Shown here one piece after another: positions 38,571-59,613 of a DNA stretch of 64,000 bases (its first letter is position 1; each line of letters begins with the position of its first letter). The notes below the pieces were generated by a model, which worked only from the letters and a program-made list of their open reading frames with translations, was not told the origin of the DNA and did no database searches. The position numbers and the translations under genes were made by a program. The stretch comes from Minisyncoccota bacterium (GTDB lineage: Bacteria > Patescibacteriota > Minisyncoccia > Phycocordibacterales > UBA9973). The stretch is taken from positions 21,913-85,912 of the forward strand of contig JBAYVZ010000004.1 of the NCBI GenBank assembly GCA_041674285.1, written 5' to 3'.

Positions 38571-38768
38571 AATAAATTAATGCATACTAAATAATAAAAA
38601 CTCCTGCACGGGCAGAAGTTTTTATATCCTTTTTTACAAAGAGATTTCCTGCTCGGGTGAACAATTTATATATTAAGATCGGACTTGTCTCTTGCGAGCT
38701 TTACCGTTGCGGCACAGTGGAGGAATATGACCTCACTTCCAAACATATAAACTTAAATTTTAAATGAA

Positions 38769-51506: not shown

Positions 51507-51513
51507 TAACTGA

Positions 51514-52413
51514 TTATAACAGATTTAGAGTTCTTTCTTTTATTGAATCATATTTATCTTTTTGTTCGGAGTAGGCAAAGAATGCGAGCGAACCTAATCC
51601 TATTCGAAGTTTGTAGCACAGCAGTCGCTCTTCAAAATTTTCTAAATTCATATCTCGATAGGCTTGCTCTGCGTTTTTGTTTGGGTCATTTCTAACTGAC
51701 CAAAACGATAGCCATGCTACGTCGTAAATAAAGTCTCCATACATAGATTCACCCCAATCAAGAATTCCTGTGATATTCTCCTTATCAGAGACCACATTAT
51801 TGCCACCGTAATCTGCGTGGACTAAATATCTCTCCTCTGGACACATTTCAGCAAGTTCTTCTATTTTAGAATATATCTTAACCCAAACATCTTTCTCTAG
51901 AATTGAATTTTCAAATAATTTATCTTTATCTAAATGTGACCCCACAGATAGTACAAATTCTTTCCAAGTCTCGAATTCCCCCACCCCGTCATTATTCCAT
52001 TTTCCAAAGCCATTTGAATCGCCAATATCAGTAGAACTTATTTCCCCCAATATCTCGAGTAGTTCGGGTAAGATTTTTTGATATTCATCTTCATTCAGCA
52101 GATTGAGAGTCGCGCCAAGAGCTTTCTTTGAAATACAAAGAAAGTGAATATCATCAAATTTTACAGTTTCTATTATTTCGGGGATTGGCAAGGTGCTCTT
52201 TGTAAAATACTTTGAAGCATATTCGTCTTTATAAAAACTACGCGCGCCCTTATTCACCCGAGCTACTAGGTCCATACCCTTTGAATTAAAAGCAAAAGCC
52301 TGTGAGGACTCCCCTCCTTTTAGGAATTCCAATTCTTTTATTTCTGCATCAAAATTTTCTCTTAGAAAAGAAAGGACTAGGCTCTGATCAATTTTTGTTT
52401 TTACTGTAGACAT
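51514..52413 (-). CDS. Aminoglycoside/phosphotransferase (APH)-family small-molecule kinase
   Basis: Catalytic loop LVHADYGGNNVV (HxDxxxxN) and metal-binding ILDWGESMYGD (D...D); Brenner/eukaryotic-like kinase fold signature. Confidence 0.6.
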   Translation of the reverse strand: MSTVKTKIDQSLVLSFLRENFDAEIKELEFLKGGESSQAFAFNSKGMDLVARVNKGARSFYKDEYASKYFTKSTLPIPEIIETVKFDDIHFLCISKKALGATLNLLNEDEYQKILPELLEILGEISSTDIGDSNGFGKWNNDGVGEFETWKEFVLSVGSHLDKDKLFENSILEKDVWVKIYSKIEELAEMCPEERYLVHADYGGNNVVSDKENITGILDWGESMYGDFIYDVAWLSFWSVRNDPNKNAEQAYRDMNLENFEERLLCYKLRIGLGSLAFFAYSEQKDKYDSIKERTLNLL

Positions 52414-52946
52414 TTTATTTTTATTTCATTACTTATTTTTAATTCTTCTGGAGTATTTATAAATTTTACAAAACCATCTGCCAATTCATCGGCGCTCAAA
52501 GAAGAAGAACTTTCAAAAACATAATGCTTAGGTTGAGACAGGACTTCTTTTTCTAAGTGATGAGCCCAATTTAAATTGTCTTGAATTAATTGATCATTCC
52601 AACCTCTTTCTTTTAATCTATTTTTAATCACCTCATCATCTGCGTGCAAAATACCAAAAACTAAATCTGTATCTTTATTTAAACTTGGTGAATTTAAAAT
52701 TTCAGAAGGAACACTAACTCCACATATAACTGTAGAGATTTTATTTTTCTCATTCTCATTTGAAATTTGTATCCATATATCCGTAGTCTCCTGTCTCCAC
52801 TCTTTACTAGGATTCTGAGGAACACCATTTTCATCAAAATCATGGACATCAAAACTATCTATCGGAAGTTTAGTTTTAAGGGATTCCATCAAAGTGGTTT
52901 TACCTGATCCACTAGTCCCAGTTATAAAATATATGCTCATATACAC
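52401..52946 (-). CDS. P-loop NTPase, nucleotide/small-molecule kinase-like (AAA_33-like)
   Basis: Walker A ITGTSGSGKTTL at the N-terminus; 181 aa; overlaps the APH gene by 13 nt (operon). Confidence 0.5.
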   Translation of the reverse strand: MYMSIYFITGTSGSGKTTLMESLKTKLPIDSFDVHDFDENGVPQNPSKEWRQETTDIWIQISNENEKNKISTVICGVSVPSEILNSPSLNKDTDLVFGILHADDEVIKNRLKERGWNDQLIQDNLNWAHHLEKEVLSQPKHYVFESSSSLSADELADGFVKFINTPEELKISNEIKIKCLQ

Positions 52947-52989
52947 AGTATACCAAATAAAAACCCTCCTGTTTGGAAGGGTTTTATTA

Positions 52990-53586
52990 TTATTCTTTAA
53001 AGTATTTATTTTTTAAAAATTCTGTTAAATCATCCATCTCTTTTCTGGATAAATCCAAAATAGTTCTTTTATTTTCAATAGAATTATTCTCAGCATTTTC
53101 CAACCCTACTGGAGCTAAGCTGTACATTGAATCTTTTGTAAAGACCGAGACGCCGTAGTGGTAAGGTGACCATTCTTTTCCGGAATAGAATTCGTCCAAC
53201 AAAATTTGAACCTTGTTCTTTAGATTTGAAGATTCTTCTTTTATTGATTCCAGAAGTTCACGATACTCAGGACTATCACCCTTGACATTTCTATATTTTG
53301 TATTTATTTCGTTTGATTCTTTTGAGTAGAATTGAGAATGTTTTTTTGATCCGAATATAACACTAGGATATGGCTTTTCTTTTTCTACATGCCCTTCACA
53401 AGATTCCATAGTATTTACACCCAGGAGGTTCATAACCACAACTGTATCCATAACACCCTCTTCCATTTTTTCATTCTCAAATTCAGATGCTGACTTTAAA
53501 ATATTCTGTTTTATATCATCCCAAGCTTTCTGTTTGATTGAAATATTTTCAGGATCAGTTTTAATAAAACTTTCTAGATTTTTCAT
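52990..53586 (-). CDS. Hypothetical protein
   Basis: 198-aa ORF, acidic, no recognisable motif. Last gene of the helicase-kinase string before the repeat region. Confidence 0.3.
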   Translation of the reverse strand: MKNLESFIKTDPENISIKQKAWDDIKQNILKSASEFENEKMEEGVMDTVVVMNLLGVNTMESCEGHVEKEKPYPSVIFGSKKHSQFYSKESNEINTKYRNVKGDSPEYRELLESIKEESSNLKNKVQILLDEFYSGKEWSPYHYGVSVFTKDSMYSLAPVGLENAENNSIENKRTILDLSRKEMDDLTEFLKNKYFKE

Positions 53587-53597
53587 AAATTAAATAT

Positions 53598-53832
53598 ACC
53601 AGAAAAGTCTTTCGATTCCCAGACACTGGGACCGCGAGTACGCTTATCGCCGATTACATCGGCAGGTACTTTTCGCTCTGGTAAACCAGAGAACGAAAAG
53701 TCTTTCAATTCCCAGACGACTACTGGGACCGGCAGTAGCCTTATCGGTCCTTACAGGACCAGTATACCTTTTGCATTTTTCTGGAGTACTCTCCATAAAA
53801 ATAAGCAAAAGGTTTTCGATTCCCAGACGGAA
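53598..53832 (+). repeat. Three tandem, degenerate ~95-bp repeat units each starting with a tRNA T-arm-like block (gaaaagtctttcgattcccagac...), in inverted orientation relative to the adjacent tRNA-His
   Basis: Units begin at 53601, 53695 and 53808. The first two share gaaaagtctttc[g/a]attcccagac-N6-8-ctgggaccg-gcagta-cttatcg. TTCGATTCCCAG equals the T-loop/T-stem of the neighbouring tRNA-His. Confidence 0.6.
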
Positions 53833-53896
53833 CATGCTCAAGCATGTTCCTTAGTCCCCCAATAGAAAAAGCCGGCACAAGGCCGACTTTTTCTAT

Positions 53897-53971
53897 TGGG
53901 GGACTACTGGGAATCGAACCCAGATCGAAGGTTCCACAAACCTCAGTGTTAACCGTTACACCATAATCCCC
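53897..53971 (-). tRNA. tRNA-His (anticodon GTG)
   Basis: Minus-strand sequence GGGGATTATGGTGTAACGGTTAACACTGAGGTTTGTGGAACCTTCGATCTGGGTTCGATTCCCAGTAGTCCCCA folds as a cloverleaf with anticodon loop TTGTGGA (GUG) and T-arm CTGGG-TTCGATT-CCCAG. A 15-bp perfect-stem hairpin follows its 3' end. Confidence 0.8.
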
Positions 53972-53983
53972 ATATATACAATC

Positions 53984-54538
53984 CTACTTGTAAGTAGGAG
54001 GTTCCTCATTTATACCAGAAAAGTGGTTAGAAAGTCTAGCTAGTGCATAAAGTAGTGAAGAAAGTCGATTTAGATAAGCTTTTGTATAATCACCCACTTT
54101 TATATTCCCCTCGTCCGCTACACCTATCACTCTCCTCTCTGCTCTGCGTGAAATAGTACGAGCGACATCAAAAAATGCCGCCAATTCTGTGCCCCCAGAA
54201 ATAAAAAAAGATTTTATTGGTGGCAATTCTTTTTCTATTGTATCTACATAATTTTCTATCTCTTTTATTTTTTCCTCGGCTATAGTCATATCACTACCAG
54301 CGAGCTCTGCCTGCACAATAAAAAGATTTTGCTGTACATCATGTACAACTTTTTCAAAAAGTTCACCTGTCGGAACTTTATACCCCTTTTCAGAACTCTT
54401 TACTTTGCAGACACCCAAAAAAGAATTGATCTCATCGAGAGTCCCTAGCGCCTCTGCTATATTTGAACTCTTTGATATTCTCTGGTCGCAGCCAAAAGTT
54501 TTCGTTGTTCCATTGTCCCCTTTTCTTGTATAAAGCAT
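53984..54538 (-). CDS. ATP:cob(I)alamin adenosyltransferase, PduO/MMAB type
   Basis: MLYTRKGDNGTTKTFGCDQRISKSSNIAEALGTLDEINSFLG matches the PduO-type N-terminus (IYTKTGDKGxT.L..G.RV.K...R.EAYG.LDELNS). Confidence 0.8.
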   Translation of the reverse strand: MLYTRKGDNGTTKTFGCDQRISKSSNIAEALGTLDEINSFLGVCKVKSSEKGYKVPTGELFEKVVHDVQQNLFIVQAELAGSDMTIAEEKIKEIENYVDTIEKELPPIKSFFISGGTELAAFFDVARTISRRAERRVIGVADEGNIKVGDYTKAYLNRLSSLLYALARLSNHFSGINEEPPTYK

Positions 54539-54539
54539 G

Positions 54540-54968
54540 TTAGATATATAGACGATAAAAAGCTAATAAAAACATAAGGATAGATATCAATGCAGATGAT
54601 ATACACCACACACACCACTGTTTAATCAGAAAGCTTTGAATAAACAAAAGATAGACAGAGAATAGCACAGACATGCCAGATATCACAATAAATAGCTCGT
54701 TTATAAAAGGTGTCCACACAAGATAAAAATTTACAAACAGATAGGCTGATGTGATAAATAAATAATATACCAAACCTAGAACTTCCACGCGGAAAGGTCC
54801 AACCACAGAATAATCACTATTCGTCACAAGCTCACAATCTGTCCTAGCTGGGCAAATCAATTTTTTCTTTTCACTCTTTTTTCTATAAATATAGAAAGCG
54901 ACGAGGAAGCCCGAGATCCCGAGTATGACGAATATTATAGAGATAATCAATTCTAGGTTTATTTGCAT
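54540..54968 (-). CDS. Vitamin K epoxide reductase (VKOR)-family membrane oxidoreductase
   Basis: 142 aa, 4-5 TM; loop Cys pair (CPARTDC) and TM CxxC (WCVWCI), the VKOR redox arrangement. Confidence 0.6.
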   Translation of the reverse strand: MQINLELIISIIFVILGISGFLVAFYIYRKKSEKKKLICPARTDCELVTNSDYSVVGPFRVEVLGLVYYLFITSAYLFVNFYLVWTPFINELFIVISGMSVLFSVYLLFIQSFLIKQWCVWCISSALISILMFLLAFYRLYI

Positions 54969-56770
54969 ACAGTTCCAGATAAGGCGATTTTTGTAGTTAT
55001 CTTTTTATTTGTACTATCTACACAGACATAGCTACCAGTCTCTGATGCCAATGGAAATGACATAGCCCAAGCTTTAGTTGTAGAGTAGCAAGATCCCTCT
55101 CCGTCCGTATTATCAAATATTTTACCCAAGAAAAACGAGATAGTGTTTGTATTCATATCATTAGGGTCAGTATAGAAAAGAGAATCTTTTTCTGGGTCAA
55201 CACAACTGCCTTTGAGGTTTGACTTGGTTCCATACAGGTTTTTATTCAATGCATACTTTTTATATATTTGAAGCTCAATATTAGAAATATTTTCTTCTAT
55301 ATTTTTATCTTTTATCTTCAGAGCTTCGATATCTACAGCGGAATTAGGAGGCACAAGGACATCTACACCACCAGACCCTTCAGTCTGGCCAGATTCATCA
55401 AATACAAAAGAATTAGTAACATTATTTAATTCCAAGTTCGTATTATTTTGCTGATTTGAATTTTGTTCATTTATTATTGGGTCGATATATTTTGCAGTTA
55501 CAGCTGTCTGATTAATCTTTGGCAAAAAAGGAATATCTATCAGTCCAGTCGTGTAAGCAAAAGCCACCCCACCAAAAATACAAGCAATCGCAACAAAAAT
55601 AAAAACTCCAACAATGAATCTTGGGACACCAGGTTTTTTCTCTTCAAAAACAAAATTCTTTGAATCACGAGGGAATGATGAAGTAACTGCACTATTCGGA
55701 GAATATGGGGCAGGTGCTGATACTGGCATAGATACTGGACTAGTTACAGGTTTTGACAATTCTTGTTTGGCAAAGACCATATAAGGTGGCTTGCCAGACG
55801 GAGCTGATGTAGCAGGAGCGATATTTACAACTGGAGGAACAGAAACAGTGGGGGTAGGATTTATTTCTACTGCTGGACTGGCTAGAGTGGATACTGGAGC
55901 TGGAGTAGACACACCTGGCATAGGCGCTGAAGATGACGCTGGCACTGTAGACATAGCTATGGGGGCACTCATCGCAGGGGGCACTATATTGTCCTCCACA
56001 GGGGCCACTGATGGCTTCTGATAAACTTTTGCAAGTTCTGCTTTTCTCTCTGGTGTACGCACTGGCGGTAATACAGCCTTTGGTGAGACAACTGGTTCTA
56101 CCTTTTTAGGAATCAGTCTGGGTATAACTTCTGTGTTCTCAGAAGAAATGATAGGTATATTTGAAGGTGTCCAGACTTTTGGGAGATTCGATGGTGGCAC
56201 AGAAGCAGAAAAACTATTTTCAATAGGCTTATCCTCTTTTACCACTTCCCTATATGGATCTATCTTTGGAGTTTCTGGCTCAATATTAGAATCTATTTTT
56301 ACTTCTGGTGTTAATACTATATCGGGGGCAGGCGCAGAAACTGGAGTTGGCTCCACAATAGGAGCTACTGAAATTTGTGGTTCTATATTTTTAACAATTT
56401 GAGTTGCTGGTTTTTCTGAAGTTGATGGTTCTAGTATTTGTACTGATTCTACTGTTTTTACCTCAGGCATTTTTTCTGATTCTGGAGTTTTTATTTCTGC
56501 AGGAACAACAATATCCGCCTTTGGTTCAGCTGGGGGTGTACTAAAGGCCGGAGTAAAAGTAGTTTGTATTTTAGGAGCAACAGGTTCTACCATCTTGGGT
56601 ACAACAAAAGCAGGAGCAACCTTCTGGAAACCTTCTTCGATATCTTCTGCTAGCCAACCAGCAGAAAGTAGCTCGGATTTAATTTTCTCACGAGGTGTAC
56701 CATTCTTTTCTTCTTTCTCAATAAACTCTACAAGATCAAGAGTAATCATATGATAAATTATATCACACAA
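54959..56770 (-). CDS. Pro/Ser/Val-rich membrane protein with C-terminal Cys-containing ectodomain
   Basis: ~330 aa low-complexity P/S/A/V-rich region; single TM FIVGVFIFVAIACIFGGVAFAY at ~aa 385; C-terminal 200 aa with 4 Cys. Confidence 0.4.
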   Translation of the reverse strand: MCDIIYHMITLDLVEFIEKEEKNGTPREKIKSELLSAGWLAEDIEEGFQKVAPAFVVPKMVEPVAPKIQTTFTPAFSTPPAEPKADIVVPAEIKTPESEKMPEVKTVESVQILEPSTSEKPATQIVKNIEPQISVAPIVEPTPVSAPAPDIVLTPEVKIDSNIEPETPKIDPYREVVKEDKPIENSFSASVPPSNLPKVWTPSNIPIISSENTEVIPRLIPKKVEPVVSPKAVLPPVRTPERKAELAKVYQKPSVAPVEDNIVPPAMSAPIAMSTVPASSSAPMPGVSTPAPVSTLASPAVEINPTPTVSVPPVVNIAPATSAPSGKPPYMVFAKQELSKPVTSPVSMPVSAPAPYSPNSAVTSSFPRDSKNFVFEEKKPGVPRFIVGVFIFVAIACIFGGVAFAYTTGLIDIPFLPKINQTAVTAKYIDPIINEQNSNQQNNTNLELNNVTNSFVFDESGQTEGSGGVDVLVPPNSAVDIEALKIKDKNIEENISNIELQIYKKYALNKNLYGTKSNLKGSCVDPEKDSLFYTDPNDMNTNTISFFLGKIFDNTDGEGSCYSTTKAWAMSFPLASETGSYVCVDSTNKKITTKIALSGTVCK

Positions 56771-58925: not shown

Positions 58926-59080
58926 TAAGTAAATATCCTTGTAGTGTATAAGATATAAACCGTACATACTGTAGTCAAGGTTTTGGTGTTAAATGTAGTA
59001 AATATACGCCCTTGTAGTGTATGTGATATAAACCGTACATACTGTAGTCAAGGTTTTGGTGTTAAATGTAGTAAATATAT
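58926..59080 (+). repeat. Two-and-a-half tandem ~72-bp direct repeats, each ending with the first 11 nt of tRNA-Arg (GCCCTTGTAGT) followed by a degenerate tRNA-like segment; the third unit runs into the intact tRNA
   Basis: Unit 58990-59062 taaatgtagtaaatatacgcccttgtagtgtatgtgatataaaccgtacatactgtagtcaaggttttggtgt. The preceding unit (58926-58989) is ~90% identical with a small deletion. The next unit (59063-) continues as gcccttgtagttaaatggatataactgcgg..., i.e. the real tRNA. Confidence 0.7.
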
Positions 59081-59152
59081 GCCCTTGTAGTTAAATGGAT
59101 ATAACTGCGGACTTCTAAGCCGTTATTGCAGGTTCGATTCCTGCCGAGGGCA
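59081..59152 (+). tRNA. tRNA-Arg (anticodon TCT), with a non-canonical A31:G39 pair
   Basis: GCCCTTGTAGTTAAATGGATATAACTGCGGACTTCTAAGCCGTTATTGCAGGTTCGATTCCTGCCGAGGGCA: acceptor 7 bp; D-stem GTTA/TAAC; anticodon loop CTTCTAA; T-arm GCAGG-TTCGATT-CCTGC. The A:G mismatch at the base of the anticodon loop lowers confidence in function. Confidence 0.6.
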
Positions 59153-59181
59153 CAAAGCAAAGTAACATACTTATATTTTTA

Positions 59182-59227
59182 GCGGACAAAAAAGCCGTTA
59201 TTGCAGGTTCGATTCCTGCCGAGGGCA
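59182..59227 (+). repeat. Duplicated 3' half of tRNA-Arg (anticodon stem through 3' end; loop replaced by CAAAAAA), 30 nt downstream of the intact gene: att-site-like scar
   Basis: gcggacaaaaaagccgttattgcaggttcgattcctgccgagggca. Identical to the tRNA from position 39 to the 3' end (agccg...gagggca) and in the 5' anticodon stem (gcgga). It lacks the acceptor 5' strand and the D-arm. Confidence 0.7.
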
Positions 59228-59238
59228 CAATATAAATA

Positions 59239-59265
59239 AAATACCTCCCCTATTGGGGAGGTATT
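59239..59265. terminator. Bidirectional terminator aaatacctcccctattggggaggtatttt between the tRNA-Arg locus (+) and the pil genes (-)
   Basis: 10-bp stem with flanking A/T runs. Confidence 0.55.
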
Positions 59266-59613
59266 TTATTTCTTAAAACGAGGGTCTTCTAATTTTAGAT
59301 TACTATCCCTTAGTGATTCCATTTTTTTAGCCTTTATATCAAAATAGCTCTTTACATTATTCAACAATTTTTCATTCCTAGAAATCAAAGTATTTTTTGA
59401 AGAAAACTCCAAACTTTTATTTAAAAAATTATCATTTTTTATTTCATATAACAGATAGAAGCTTGATATAACCAAAAGAAACAGAATCACAAAAAAAGAA
59501 TTCAACATAAAAATCCAATGCTTGTGTGGATTCATACACACAGACTTTTTGTGATGTTTTATGAAAAGAGATTTTATATCTAATATATTCATATTAAAAA
59601 GTATATACTTCAA
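59266..59613 (-). CDS. Small membrane protein, last gene of the pilMNO cluster (PilP-like position)
   Basis: 115 aa with one TM (IFMLNSFFVILFLLVISSFYLLY); function by position only. Confidence 0.3.
   Translation of the reverse strand: MKYILFNMNILDIKSLFIKHHKKSVCMNPHKHWIFMLNSFFVILFLLVISSFYLLYEIKNDNFLNKSLEFSSKNTLISRNEKLLNNVKSYFDIKAKKMESLRDSNLKLEDPRFKK

Follow-up and report, generated by a model that had tools for sequence, protein, structure and literature searches.

A conserved, structured element downstream of tRNA genes in Patescibacteria with arms that match the neighbouring tRNA

A repeat array beside tRNA-His

The window, by which we mean the whole 64-kb stretch of DNA analysed here, carries a conserved element in three copies, two complete and one truncated, all on the strand of an adjacent tRNA-His gene (minus). 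The features of the locus are as follows, in tRNA sense:

53898..53970, minus strand: tRNA-His (GUG), called by ARAGORN and matching the Rfam tRNA model at 60.9 bits
53861..53897, no strand assigned: spacer hairpin made of an A-tract, a GC stem, and a U-tract; inverted repeat with 25-nt arms, 96% complementary
53852..53860, minus strand: acceptor arm (acc5'*), reading GGGGGACUA on this strand; from sequence and inverted repeat
53829..53850, minus strand: hairpin P4, 9–10 bp; inverted repeat in which all 9 pairs covary across 123 elements
53732..53828, minus strand: unit B, complete, subtype GUAUACC/CUUUUGC; covariance model (CM) match at 53732–53857, 63.0 bits, E = 1.6e-14; GU at 53827–53828, T arm plus GAA at 53815–53826 (complementary to tRNA 54–65), P3 at 53766–53813, P2 at 53746–53760, mini-hairpin at 53731–53740
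53718..53728, minus strand: DR1 of unit B, UCCCAGUAGUC, 100% identical to 53902–53912
53626..53717, minus strand: unit A, complete, subtype GUACC/CUUUUCG; CM match at 53635–53727, 73.2 bits, E = 3.6e-17; GU at 53716–53717, T arm at 53704–53715, P3 at 53668–53701, P2 at 53649–53663, mini-hairpin at 53634–53643, DR1' UCCCAG at 53626–53631
53602..53624, minus strand: truncated third unit, consisting of GU, T arm, then GAAAGACUUUUC; a 23-nt repeat copy
51514..53586, minus strand: three-gene block outside the element (Pfam, NCBIfam, and blastn against locus L006)
52990–53586, minus strand: hypothetical protein, 198 aa, without a Pfam or NCBIfam match
52401–52946, minus strand: P-loop kinase (AAA_18; Pfam/NCBIfam)
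51514–52413, minus strand: APH-family phosphotransferase, APH(4)-Ia-like (Pfam/NCBIfam)

The 3' third of tRNA-His (positions 54–73, window 53898–53918) is both the target of the complementary arms and the source of the direct repeats. The acceptor arm GGGGGACUA is the Watson-Crick complement of the acceptor 3' strand of the tRNA, UAGUCCCCC, while DR1 of unit B is a direct copy of its T-stem 3' strand and the start of its acceptor 3' strand. The spacer hairpin, which from its sequence looks like a bidirectional intrinsic terminator, runs flush into the helix formed by the acceptor 3' strand and the acceptor arm, and relatives show the same arrangement. Unit B is homologous to the elements of loci L014 and L003; unit A is 95.7% identical to the unit of L006, where the flanking genes are about 85% identical. 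The truncated third unit gives only a weak CM match (53549–53633, 17.6 bits, E = 0.01) and stops in the 5' strand of P3, at the start of the three-gene block. The covariance model finds only these three matches in the 64 kb, all on the minus strand.

A preliminary description of this DNA reported tandem units carrying T-arm-like blocks, and the repeats themselves are readily recovered. The 23-nt block GAAAAGTCTTTCGATTCCCAGAC occurs three times, at 53602–53624, 53695–53717 (96%), and 53806–53828 (87%), with a spacing of 93 and 111 nt, and a 21-mer search allowing up to 3 mismatches returns exactly three sites in the 64 kb, against 0.00 expected from shuffles. Twelve nucleotides of the block, TTCGATTCCCAG at 53611 and 53815 and with one mismatch at 53704, are identical to the T-loop and T-stem of tRNA-His, whose minus-strand copy lies at 53907–53918. 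The continuation common to the first two units extends over 34 nt at 76% identity. TRF reports no tandem array at the units, because they are too diverged. Of the three hairpins named in the preliminary description, ggaacatgct/agcatgttcc (53829–53850) is the conserved helix P4 and ctctgg..ccagag is the P3 tip of unit A; the third, cccagacactggg, is only a junction between the tRNA-derived end of one unit and the arm of the next. The region folds far better than shuffles on both strands (z = -11.4 and -10.3).

The units had also been described as not being simple att duplications. A direct repeat of the tRNA 3' part does lie downstream on the tRNA's own strand, with GACTACTGGGA at 53718–53728 and 53902–53912, and each full unit ends in such a copy, as do elements across the family. 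A plain att-like duplication of 35 nt is present at tRNA-Arg in the same window.

Architecture and predicted fold

Read in tRNA sense, the tRNA gene is followed by an optional terminator hairpin and then by the element, which begins with an arm complementary to the acceptor 3' strand, continues with hairpin P4, GU, and an arm complementary to tRNA 57–65 (54–65 when the constant GAA after the arm is counted), and ends with GAAAGAC, hairpin P3, GUACC, hairpin P2, and a direct copy of the tRNA 3' third. The constant scaffold thus comprises P4 (loop CUGC), GU, GAAAGAC, P3 (base ACUUUUC/GAAAAGU), GUACC, and P2 (loop GUA). The locus-specific sequence consists of the two arms, which are Watson-Crick complements of the tRNA 3' third, and the downstream direct copy (DR1).

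A lone unit is predicted to fold as a tRNA-like Y, in which an acceptor-like helix P0 and a T-like helix P1 share a continuous 3' strand identical to tRNA 57–73. P4, which lies between the acceptor arm and the T arm, stands in for the tRNA body, and the T-loop gives way to a three-way junction bearing P3 and P2 (GAAAGAC-P3-GUACC-P2). Single elements fold as P0/P4/P1/P3/P2 at about -58 kcal/mol, and complete members, for example those of L027 and L019, show the P0/P1 fold with the full 3' strand. In this window P0 is available for the arm of unit B only, with DR1 cut to 11 nt and 6 nt in the two complete units. When tRNA and element are folded together (L027, L019, and this window), the best ViennaRNA structure is a long hairpin pairing the tRNA 3' third with the arms rather than two separate tRNA-like folds.

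The units are not cloverleaf tRNAs: ARAGORN and Rfam call only tRNA-His at 53898–53970 and no tRNA in 53598–53897 on either strand, and the unit hairpin loops have 3–4 nt, as opposed to the 7-nt T-loop of a cloverleaf tRNA. Bases outside the helices are strongly conserved, which hints at a specific partner or at a catalytic core.

Covariation and strand

P4 and P2 covary, with 516 double-change cells compared to 148 in shuffles; none of 500 shuffles reaches 516, and slid controls give 75–146. RNAalifold independently recovers P4, P3, and P2. For the strand test we used exact helices and a strand-symmetric scoring that treats G.U and A.C equally. On the tRNA strand, G.U outnumbers A.C by 171:26 (P4 22:10, P3 63:10, and P2 86:6, the last inflated by one closing U.G pair that does not covary cleanly); column-based strand counts from the RNAalifold table looked symmetric. 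Moreover, only on the tRNA strand does P4 fall between the acceptor and T stems, at the site of the tRNA body. The folded strand of the element is therefore that of the tRNA. The preliminary description had assigned small structured RNAs or degenerate tRNA-derived elements to the plus strand; their structured, tRNA-derived, and non-coding character is upheld, whereas the strand is reversed, and the plus-strand T-arm-like block is the complementary arm of the element read backwards.

Arms and direct repeats follow the neighbouring tRNA

The arms differ along with the adjacent tRNA in more than 100 loci, a key property that had not been part of the preliminary description. The T arm is complementary to tRNA 57–65 at a mean of 8.15 of 9 positions. 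At tRNA stems with a G.U pair or a mismatch, 21 cases have arms complementary to the 3' strand, against 3 whose arms are copies of the 5' strand. Of 80 loci, about 33 carry the whole of DR1 (17/17), and most of the others keep at least its inner 7 nt. Worn or shortened DR1 copies accompany well-matched tRNA-proximal arms in L036 (arms 17/17, DR1 11/13), L046, L070, L082, L106, and L133. Across about ten loci, this sequence pattern suggests that the arms may be selected to pair with the real tRNA rather than with DR1; against this, acceptor arms decay too, and in L062 the internal repeats have been remodelled into a short P4.

Distribution and tRNA linkage

A search pattern without tRNA-derived bases, representing one subtype, retrieved at least 120 metagenome loci. 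A tRNA lies no more than 250 nt away in 90 of the 122 matches listed, in every case convergent with the plus strand of the preliminary description, and the tRNAs preceding the element belong to 19 amino-acid types. All 20 apparent orphans inspected among the CM matches follow either a tRNA or another unit. The element is Patescibacteria-wide and, among the matches listed, always lies immediately 3' of a tRNA gene and in the same orientation. Eight of the 15 matches in the genome collection share the flanks of the element and belong to Saccharibacteria, Paceibacterota, Parcubacteria, Nomurabacteria, or Minisyncoccia; the remaining seven are bare 21-mer matches in unrelated genomes.

Tandem arrays of 2–3 units are common, with up to four copies per 15-kb locus. 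Within a genome the element accompanies only some tRNAs, and relatives differ; in L027 it follows Val, Arg, Leu, and His, and in this window His only. Such patchy presence would be expected of a dispensable or selfish element no less than of a functional one. At the Leu gene of L027, the repeat reaches through the terminator, over about 55 nt.

Two scans of 2.9 million viral contigs gave no match. As the preliminary description had proposed, the units were compared to Rfam: no family matched, the known self-cleaving ribozymes and riboswitches included. At permissive filters (Rfam 15 cmscan, E <= 10, 52500–55000), only tRNA-His and chance hairpin matches to the terminator were returned, and at gathering thresholds the whole window yielded three tRNAs and one AdoCbl riboswitch and nothing else. 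Full-text literature searches found no description of the element, which apparently has not been described so far.

Neighbouring genes and coding potential

The preliminary description regarded a helicase, an APH kinase, a P-loop kinase, and a hypothetical gene as an accessory string. This holds for the last three, which the 85%-identical locus L006 lacks (window 51510–53624), and fails for the helicase, which L006 retains (blastn). A 65-aa ORF across the units, likewise suspected earlier, is probably spurious; it has no family support, and homologous elements elsewhere have variable, non-triplet lengths, so that a coding role is unlikely.

No recombinase was detected by Pfam in the ten ORFs around the array. 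At 89 family loci an ORF could be called beyond the element; reading these translations by eye, we recognised ordinary housekeeping genes but no integrase, no transposase, and no reverse transcriptase. The element is therefore not a general marker of islands.

Possible functions and origins

Tentatively, and with rather less than even confidence, we favour a pseudo-tRNA trailer RNA carrying recombination-prone tRNA 3' thirds, a function that we infer. RNA polymerase reading through the tRNA terminator would transcribe the element as a trailer, which may fold as a pseudo-tRNA and be taken up by the enzymes that process tRNA ends (RNase P, RNase Z, and the CCA-adding enzyme). Processing would then cut read-through transcripts off the tRNA and off downstream genes, and unequal recombination between the repeated tRNA 3' thirds could give rise to arrays in tandem, to incomplete copies, and to the mixture of A and B in this window. 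Several observations fit this model poorly. A terminator-like hairpin usually lies between tRNA and element and the space is too small for a separate promoter, so that the RNA may be rare. P0 is often incomplete and DR1 often truncated, in this window too, so that an intact pseudo-tRNA cannot be a requirement. Moreover, the element lacks the T-loop elbow used by RNase P and RNase Z, the best joint fold is the long hairpin with the tRNA's own 3' third, presence is patchy across tRNAs and relatives, and the conserved unpaired bases are not accounted for.

Nearly as likely is a miniature tRNA-homing element, non-autonomous and either mobile or integrative. It would insert in the T-loop at about position 56/57, bringing a replacement tRNA 3' third and terminator so that the tRNA stays intact, and the displaced original 3' third would be left downstream as DR1, free to decay. 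The arms would fold onto the tRNA-derived segment to give a ssDNA or RNA hairpin mimicking the duplex target site, perhaps analogous to CTX-phi attP or integron attC, on which a recombinase or reverse transcriptase encoded elsewhere could act. Integrative elements that target tRNA genes are classically recognised by a direct repeat of the tRNA 3' part starting in the T-loop, and such a repeat is found here. Consistent with mobility are also the decay of DR1 while tRNA-proximal arms keep matching, the common arrays of 2–3 units, the differing presence among relatives, the L027-Leu repeat that runs through the terminator, and a predicted best fold that resembles a tRNA with a large T-loop insertion. 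Units A and B of the window are of different subtypes, so that the array is not a simple local duplication. On the other hand, no mobility gene was recognised by eye in the 89 loci and no match was found in the viral contigs. One constant element cannot provide three tRNA-specific segments for 19 tRNA types, and every lineage would therefore need to be specialised. Elements that follow the same tRNA are of one subtype across genomes, and the copies of a single genome are unlike one another; this pattern speaks for long vertical residence and against recent bursts. None of the pairs of empty and filled sites is close enough to set the insertion boundaries.

A programmable tRNA-addressed module is conceivable but doubtful. 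In such a module, a fixed scaffold would present two guide arms pairing with the 3' third (54–73) of one tRNA, serving either an RNA- or ssDNA-guided mobile element homing to tRNA genes or a system peculiar to Patescibacteria, perhaps a small ribozyme, with single tRNAs or tRNA precursors as its targets. We know of neither a guided tRNA-homing element nor such a tRNA-acting system in bacteria.

We consider it unlikely that the element is a cis-acting tRNA trap or sensor, in which the arms pair with the tRNA's own 3' third in read-through precursors. The resulting long hairpin, with the terminator at its apex, would inactivate escaped transcripts, mark them for RNase III, or terminate them, and DR1 would compete for pairing and thereby set the balance. 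The arm plus GAA is a perfect 12-nt complement of tRNA-His 54–65 and the acceptor arm complements 66–74; in many loci the inverted repeat crosses the spacer without a break, the arms match the 3' strand by strict Watson-Crick complementarity, and the predicted best joint fold is this hairpin in L027, L019, and the window. However, its frequent formation would destroy an essential tRNA, and the model leaves unexplained both the conserved, covarying P2, P3, and P4 with their junction nucleotides and the retention of the inner 7 nt of DR1 in most loci. Perfect arms could instead be maintained by quasi-palindrome correction at the DNA level.

Very improbable is the original reading, in which the plus strand would encode independent small RNAs or degenerate pieces of tRNA, with their ends at the shared terminator. 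The last unit on that strand is followed directly by the hairpin and a U-run, some relatives have -10-like sequences upstream (by eye), and both strands fold better than shuffles. The G.U bias nevertheless favours the opposite strand, and P4 would come to lie 3', between the T strand and the acceptor strand, an arrangement we know from no tRNA-like fold. In L004, L011, and L021 a terminator directly precedes the element on the plus strand without a promoter, and a promoter scan was not above chance.

Inert attL/attR scars of successive island insertions at tRNA-His, with the kinase genes as the last cargo, can hardly be credited: the repeated tRNA 3' end, the absence of the three-gene block from L006, and the att-like duplication at tRNA-Arg fit them, but this reading is already contradicted by covariation. 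Scars would not form such a family, in which distant Patescibacteria lineages keep the scaffold and its loops and show compensatory changes. In addition, there is no integrase at this locus and none was recognised by eye at the 89 others, and unit A is more conserved than the adjacent genes.

Significance

Patescibacteria make up a large share of bacterial diversity and have tiny genomes with little room for non-essential DNA; to our knowledge, almost none of their non-coding RNAs has been characterised. The element combines abundance, conservation across lineages, covariation, and arms that are rewritten for each neighbouring tRNA. A functional RNA would represent an unknown layer of tRNA transcript handling in reduced cells, and a selfish element would represent an unusual homing strategy that spares its target tRNA. 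For annotation, the element gives rise to spurious ORF calls and tRNA-fragment signals and should be masked by pipelines. Rearrangement and gene insertion beside tRNA genes are likely to be frequent at its repeats, as for the kinase block.

Comparison with known systems

A number of known classes were considered and rejected. Tandem repeats upstream of ORF 52990–53586 recall a ToxIN-like type III toxin-antitoxin layout, but no toxin gene was found and the downstream gene differs in every locus. An RNase P RNA remnant was suggested by GAAAGUC and GCUUAUCG, which resemble CR-I and CR-V, but these are not conserved in single-unit relatives and have no Rfam match. Hammerhead, hairpin, twister, pistol, and hatchet ribozymes are not indicated, with no CUGANGA-type core by eye and no Rfam match. 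Against a retron ncRNA, no reverse transcriptase was recognised nearby, and the short and long hairpins come in the right order only on the non-folded strand. A cis-regulatory leader of the kinase operon is at odds with downstream genes that differ per locus, some of them convergent with a terminator between. A defence system was rejected, as PADLOC yields only weak P-loop and helicase matches; ORF 52990–53586 has a weak partial match to AriAB (E = 6.7e-05, 19.7 bits, residues 87–139). A phage origin was discarded given the empty viral-contig scans, and an integrase-type att element given that no recombinase was recognised by the repeats, by Pfam here or by eye in the other loci, and that no cargo lies by them; the repeats stand only ~100–130 nt apart. 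A group I or tRNA intron does not apply, as the tRNA here is intact; the only Patescibacteria tRNA introns in the literature searched interrupt the anticodon loop at 35/36 (10.1101/2025.07.03.662931).

Like REP/BIME, Correia, RPE, and MITE sequences, the element is small, non-coding, hairpin-rich, multi-copy, and found in gene 3' flanks. It differs in its strict tRNA association and in terminal inverted sequences that are locus-specific rather than constant; an assignment to MITE or REP was rejected, as these sequences change from one tRNA to the next and the element is flanked by a repeat of tRNA sequence, 7 to 17 nt or more in length.

Some mobile ribozymes form helices with host sequence, such as the group I IGS/P1, the group II EBS-IBS, and the R2 5' ribozyme (28S rRNA). 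The element shares with them a constant scaffold and variable arms complementary to a co-oriented upstream host RNA gene. Its scaffold is only ~70–100 nt, with no known catalytic core recognised and no reverse transcriptase or endonuclease nearby, and unlike in these ribozymes the upstream "exon" sequence is duplicated downstream.

Integrative elements that target tRNA genes and leave attL/attR repeats were reportedly treated by Williams in 2002. Such elements likewise show a T-loop-starting direct repeat downstream of an intact tRNA, tandem accretion, and presence that varies between relatives. In contrast, our element has only ~100–150 nt between the repeats, without integrase or cargo, and has a conserved, covarying interior and an inverted copy of the same tRNA segment.

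Bacterial tRNA mimics include the tRNA-like domain of tmRNA and YrlA/Y-RNA-like RNAs, alongside viral tRNA-like structures. Bacterial Y RNAs that mimic tRNAs have been listed (PMC4201824). The element has a three-way junction where mimics have the hallmark T-loop; its stems copy the tRNA gene immediately upstream while those of mimics are fixed, and it is tied to tRNA 3' flanks, often in arrays, with no Rfam match at E <= 10. As in these mimics, acceptor-like and T-like helices would stack on a continuous 3' strand in complete members of the family, and the tRNA body is swapped for another module.

A Structured Element Matched to the Neighboring tRNA

The GAAAAGTCTTTCGATTCCCAGAC block occurs three times beside tRNA-His, at 53602 (100%), 53695 (96%), and 53806 (87% identity), with spacings of 93 and 111 nt, and a 21-mer search allowing up to 3 mismatches found these three sites in the whole 64 kb and no others (0 expected). 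A 12-mer within the blocks, TTCGATTCCCAG, is the T-loop and 3' T-stem of the adjacent tRNA-His; the repeated block of the preliminary description is thus borne out. Its proposal of structured units also holds, as both strands of the interval are much more stably folded than shuffled sequence (z = -11.4 and -10.3) and compensatory changes are found family-wide. A covariance search against Rfam 15 returned no match for the units, even at E <= 10. A covariance model trained on 123 members of the family matches exactly three units in the 64 kb, every one on the minus strand. The features of this interval are:

53602-53624, minus strand: third unit, truncated inside P3 (covariance model 17.6 bits)
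53626-53717, minus strand: unit A (73.2 bits)
53644-53841, minus strand: 65-aa ORF, probably spurious
53718-53728, minus strand: DR1 of unit B
53732-53828, minus strand: unit B (63.0 bits)
53829-53850, minus strand: P4
53852-53860, minus strand: acc5'*
53898-53970, minus strand: tRNA-His (GUG)

On the tRNA strand, the tRNA is followed by an optional spacer hairpin resembling a bidirectional terminator and by acc5'*, an arm complementary to the tRNA acceptor 3' strand. After an A come the hairpin P4 (9-10 bp, loop CUGC), GU, and T5'*, an arm complementing tRNA positions 57-65, with a constant GAA after it that also complements U54-U55-C56. The remainder comprises (GA)AAGAC, hairpin P3 (conserved base ACUUUUC/GAAAAGU, variable tip), GUACC, hairpin P2 (loop GUA), a mini-hairpin in some subtypes, and DR1, a direct repeat of the tRNA sequence starting at position 57. 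In the compact tandem arrays of L053 (7658-7876) and L062 (1-280), the P4 5' strand is supplied by the terminal part of the tRNA or DR copy that precedes it (GCAC..., GUCC CUGC GGAC), and therefore the repeat unit overlaps the tRNA 3' end itself.

The arms track the neighboring tRNA closely, with a mean of 8.15 of 9 T5'* positions complementary to tRNA 57-65. At G.U pairs or mismatches within the tRNA stems, the arm follows the 3' strand as its Watson-Crick complement in 21 cases and repeats the 5' strand in 3, so the arms are not the decayed 5' half of a tRNA. Of 80 loci, about 33 have a DR1 that matches at 17/17 positions; in the others it is shortened or diverged, though most of these retain its inner ~7 nt, which close the P1/P3/P2 junction. 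At about 10 loci (e.g., L036) DR1 has diverged while the arms are still perfect complements of the real tRNA, which is suggestive of arms matched to the real tRNA, and no more than that because acceptor arms also decay.

Covariation and the Folded Strand

In an alignment of 123 sequences, double compensatory changes occur in 9/9 P4 pairs and 5/7 P2 pairs. The 516 double-change cells observed compare with 148 +/- 11 in shuffled alignments (0/500 reach 516) and 75-146 in slid controls, and selection acts on the structure. The same P4, P3, and P2 emerge independently from RNAalifold, including one P3 pair that is CG in 45 sequences, GC in 39, UA in 23, and AU in 10. The invariance of the P3 base is imposed by the search pattern and so is no proof of selection.

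The strand was assessed with a scoring that treats G.U and A.C equally. G.U:A.C counts on the tRNA-sense strand are 22:10 for P4, 63:10 for P3, and 86:6 for P2 (the last including one frequent closing U.G pair). The tRNA-sense strand is the only one on which P4 falls between the two 5' strands of the acceptor-like and T-like helices, the place of the tRNA D and anticodon domain. The element therefore folds on the tRNA strand, and the + strand units initially described opposite the tRNA are the element read backwards.

Distribution among Patescibacteria and Metagenomes

Relatives show that the element belongs to a family and is not peculiar to this locus. The 21-mer was found at 15 loci in a genome collection, 8 of them with homologous flanks and covarying hairpins; these eight are all from Patescibacteria (Saccharibacteria, Paceibacterota, Parcubacteria, Nomurabacteria, and Minisyncoccia). 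The constant part alone, GGTACTTTTC N12-40 GAAAAGTCTTTC, chosen against bias toward the tRNA-His T-arm, matched at least 120 metagenome stretches, which represent one subtype; taxonomy comes from the genome-collection matches only. At the metagenome loci, the flanks of the constant part vary by locus and match the adjacent tRNA on both sides. Among the matches listed, a tRNA lies within 250 nt in 90 of 122 elements, in one relative orientation throughout and with 19 amino-acid types, and each of 20 apparent orphans inspected among covariance-model matches likewise lies 3' of a tRNA or another unit. Units frequently form arrays of 2-3. Not every tRNA carries an element (87 of 150, in a biased locus set). 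These loci define a new, widespread, tRNA-linked family of structured elements with a constant scaffold and tRNA-matched arms.

A P2 variant, GCCGCAGUAUCGGCG, was seen only after tRNA-Ser genes, with several anticodons (L017, L046, L064, L076, L087, L093, L124, L033), a pattern suggestive of spread among tRNA genes whose 3' thirds are alike. L027, a relative with 70-84% identity and the same Val/Arg/Leu/His tRNA cluster, has elements of different subtypes after all four tRNAs; the window has them after His only. The window also encodes tRNA-Arg (UCU) (59081-59153, + strand; feature region 58930-59270), whose 3' half has a perfect 35-nt direct repeat 40 nt downstream (59119-59153, 59194-59228), then a terminator. 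L027 shares this duplication, followed by a structured element, the window being the 'empty' version. Upstream of tRNA-Arg in the window are two ~70-nt direct repeats (~58937-59006 and ~59010-59079), each opening with the tRNA-Arg 5' start gcccttgtag.

Neighboring Genes

In L006, a Parcubacteria MAG and the window's closest relative here (~85% identity), a PIF1-type helicase directly adjoins a partial unit, unit A, P4, and tRNA-His. Between the two genomes, identity is 95.7% across unit A, as against ~85% in the coding flanks. Relative to L006, the window has unit B and 51510-53624 as extra sequence; the latter three-gene block is therefore accessory and encodes a hypothetical protein (198 aa), an AAA_18 P-loop kinase, and the following:

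51514-52413, minus strand: APH-family phosphotransferase, APH(4)-Ia-like

The gene string originally regarded as accessory is so for these three genes but not for the helicase, which is conserved in L006. The best similarity of the APH protein is to APH(4)-Ia (hygromycin-B phosphotransferase; E = 3.4e-50), at 171 bits well short of the 725-bit cutoff; an aminoglycoside-kinase-like accessory gene is paired here with the AAA_18 P-loop kinase in a Patescibacteria genome. PADLOC gave no convincing defence assignment for the neighboring genes.

The block lies directly against the truncated third unit, which fits a role of the repeats as a recombination-prone site. Repeat D3, TATACCAGAAAAGT..., occurs at 53595-53615 and 54011-54031; its minus-strand form, ACTTTTCTGGTATA(T/A), is an extended -10-like motif found upstream of both tRNA-His and the 198-aa ORF. 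The break in the third unit falls precisely at the ACTTTTC common to D3, which suggests that the block was joined via microhomology between the P3 base and promoter sequence.

The 65-aa ORF, already suspected to be spurious, lies wholly within two covariance-model matches, has no family match, and corresponds in homologues to a region whose length differences are not multiples of three. A PduO-type cobalamin adenosyltransferase gene (53984-54538) adjoins tRNA-His, and an AdoCbl (B12) riboswitch is found at 38639-38766 (minus strand; 50.5 bits versus an Rfam gathering cutoff of 50).

Possible Roles and Relation to Known Systems

Two predicted states underlie the competing explanations. A complete element alone is predicted to form a tRNA-like Y (acceptor-like helix P0, P4, and T-like helix P1 with P3 and P2; ~-58 kcal/mol). 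With the tRNA included, the best predicted fold is a long hairpin that pairs the arms with the 3' third of the tRNA itself and carries the terminator at its apex. The motif GAGCGAAGCGAG / CGAAGUGAG, recurring in P3 tips and spacer loops (L019, L016, L068, L036, L026, L040, L075), contains GCGAAGC, an exceptionally stable DNA mini-hairpin, which gives a hint that folding as single-stranded DNA may play a part for the element.

We tentatively favor a joint reading, with somewhat less than an even chance, in which the element would be a read-through trailer RNA of the tRNA that may fold as a pseudo-tRNA, would be handled by tRNA-processing enzymes, and may expand through recombination between repeated tRNA 3' thirds. 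A miniature tRNA-homing mobile element, whose own 3'-third copy would restore the tRNA and leave the displaced original as DR1, is only a little less likely. Viral contigs gave zero element matches, and neighbor ORF translations from 89 loci, read by eye without a domain search, showed recognisable ordinary genes (enolase, GMP synthase, RuvA, SmpB, MiaA, and others) and no recognised integrase, transposase, or reverse transcriptase. It is improbable that the element is a cis-acting trap whose arms would capture the tRNA's own 3' third in the long hairpin. The + strand sRNA reading, disfavored by the G.U:A.C counts and P4 position, and inert att scars are both very improbable.

In the predicted fold of tRNA plus element, DR1 pairs with the tRNA 5' strands, and the whole looks like a tRNA whose T-loop carries a giant insertion. 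A full-text literature search found no description of the element; the one related paper deals with group I introns that lie at 35/36 in tRNAs of Patescibacteria (10.1101/2025.07.03.662931).
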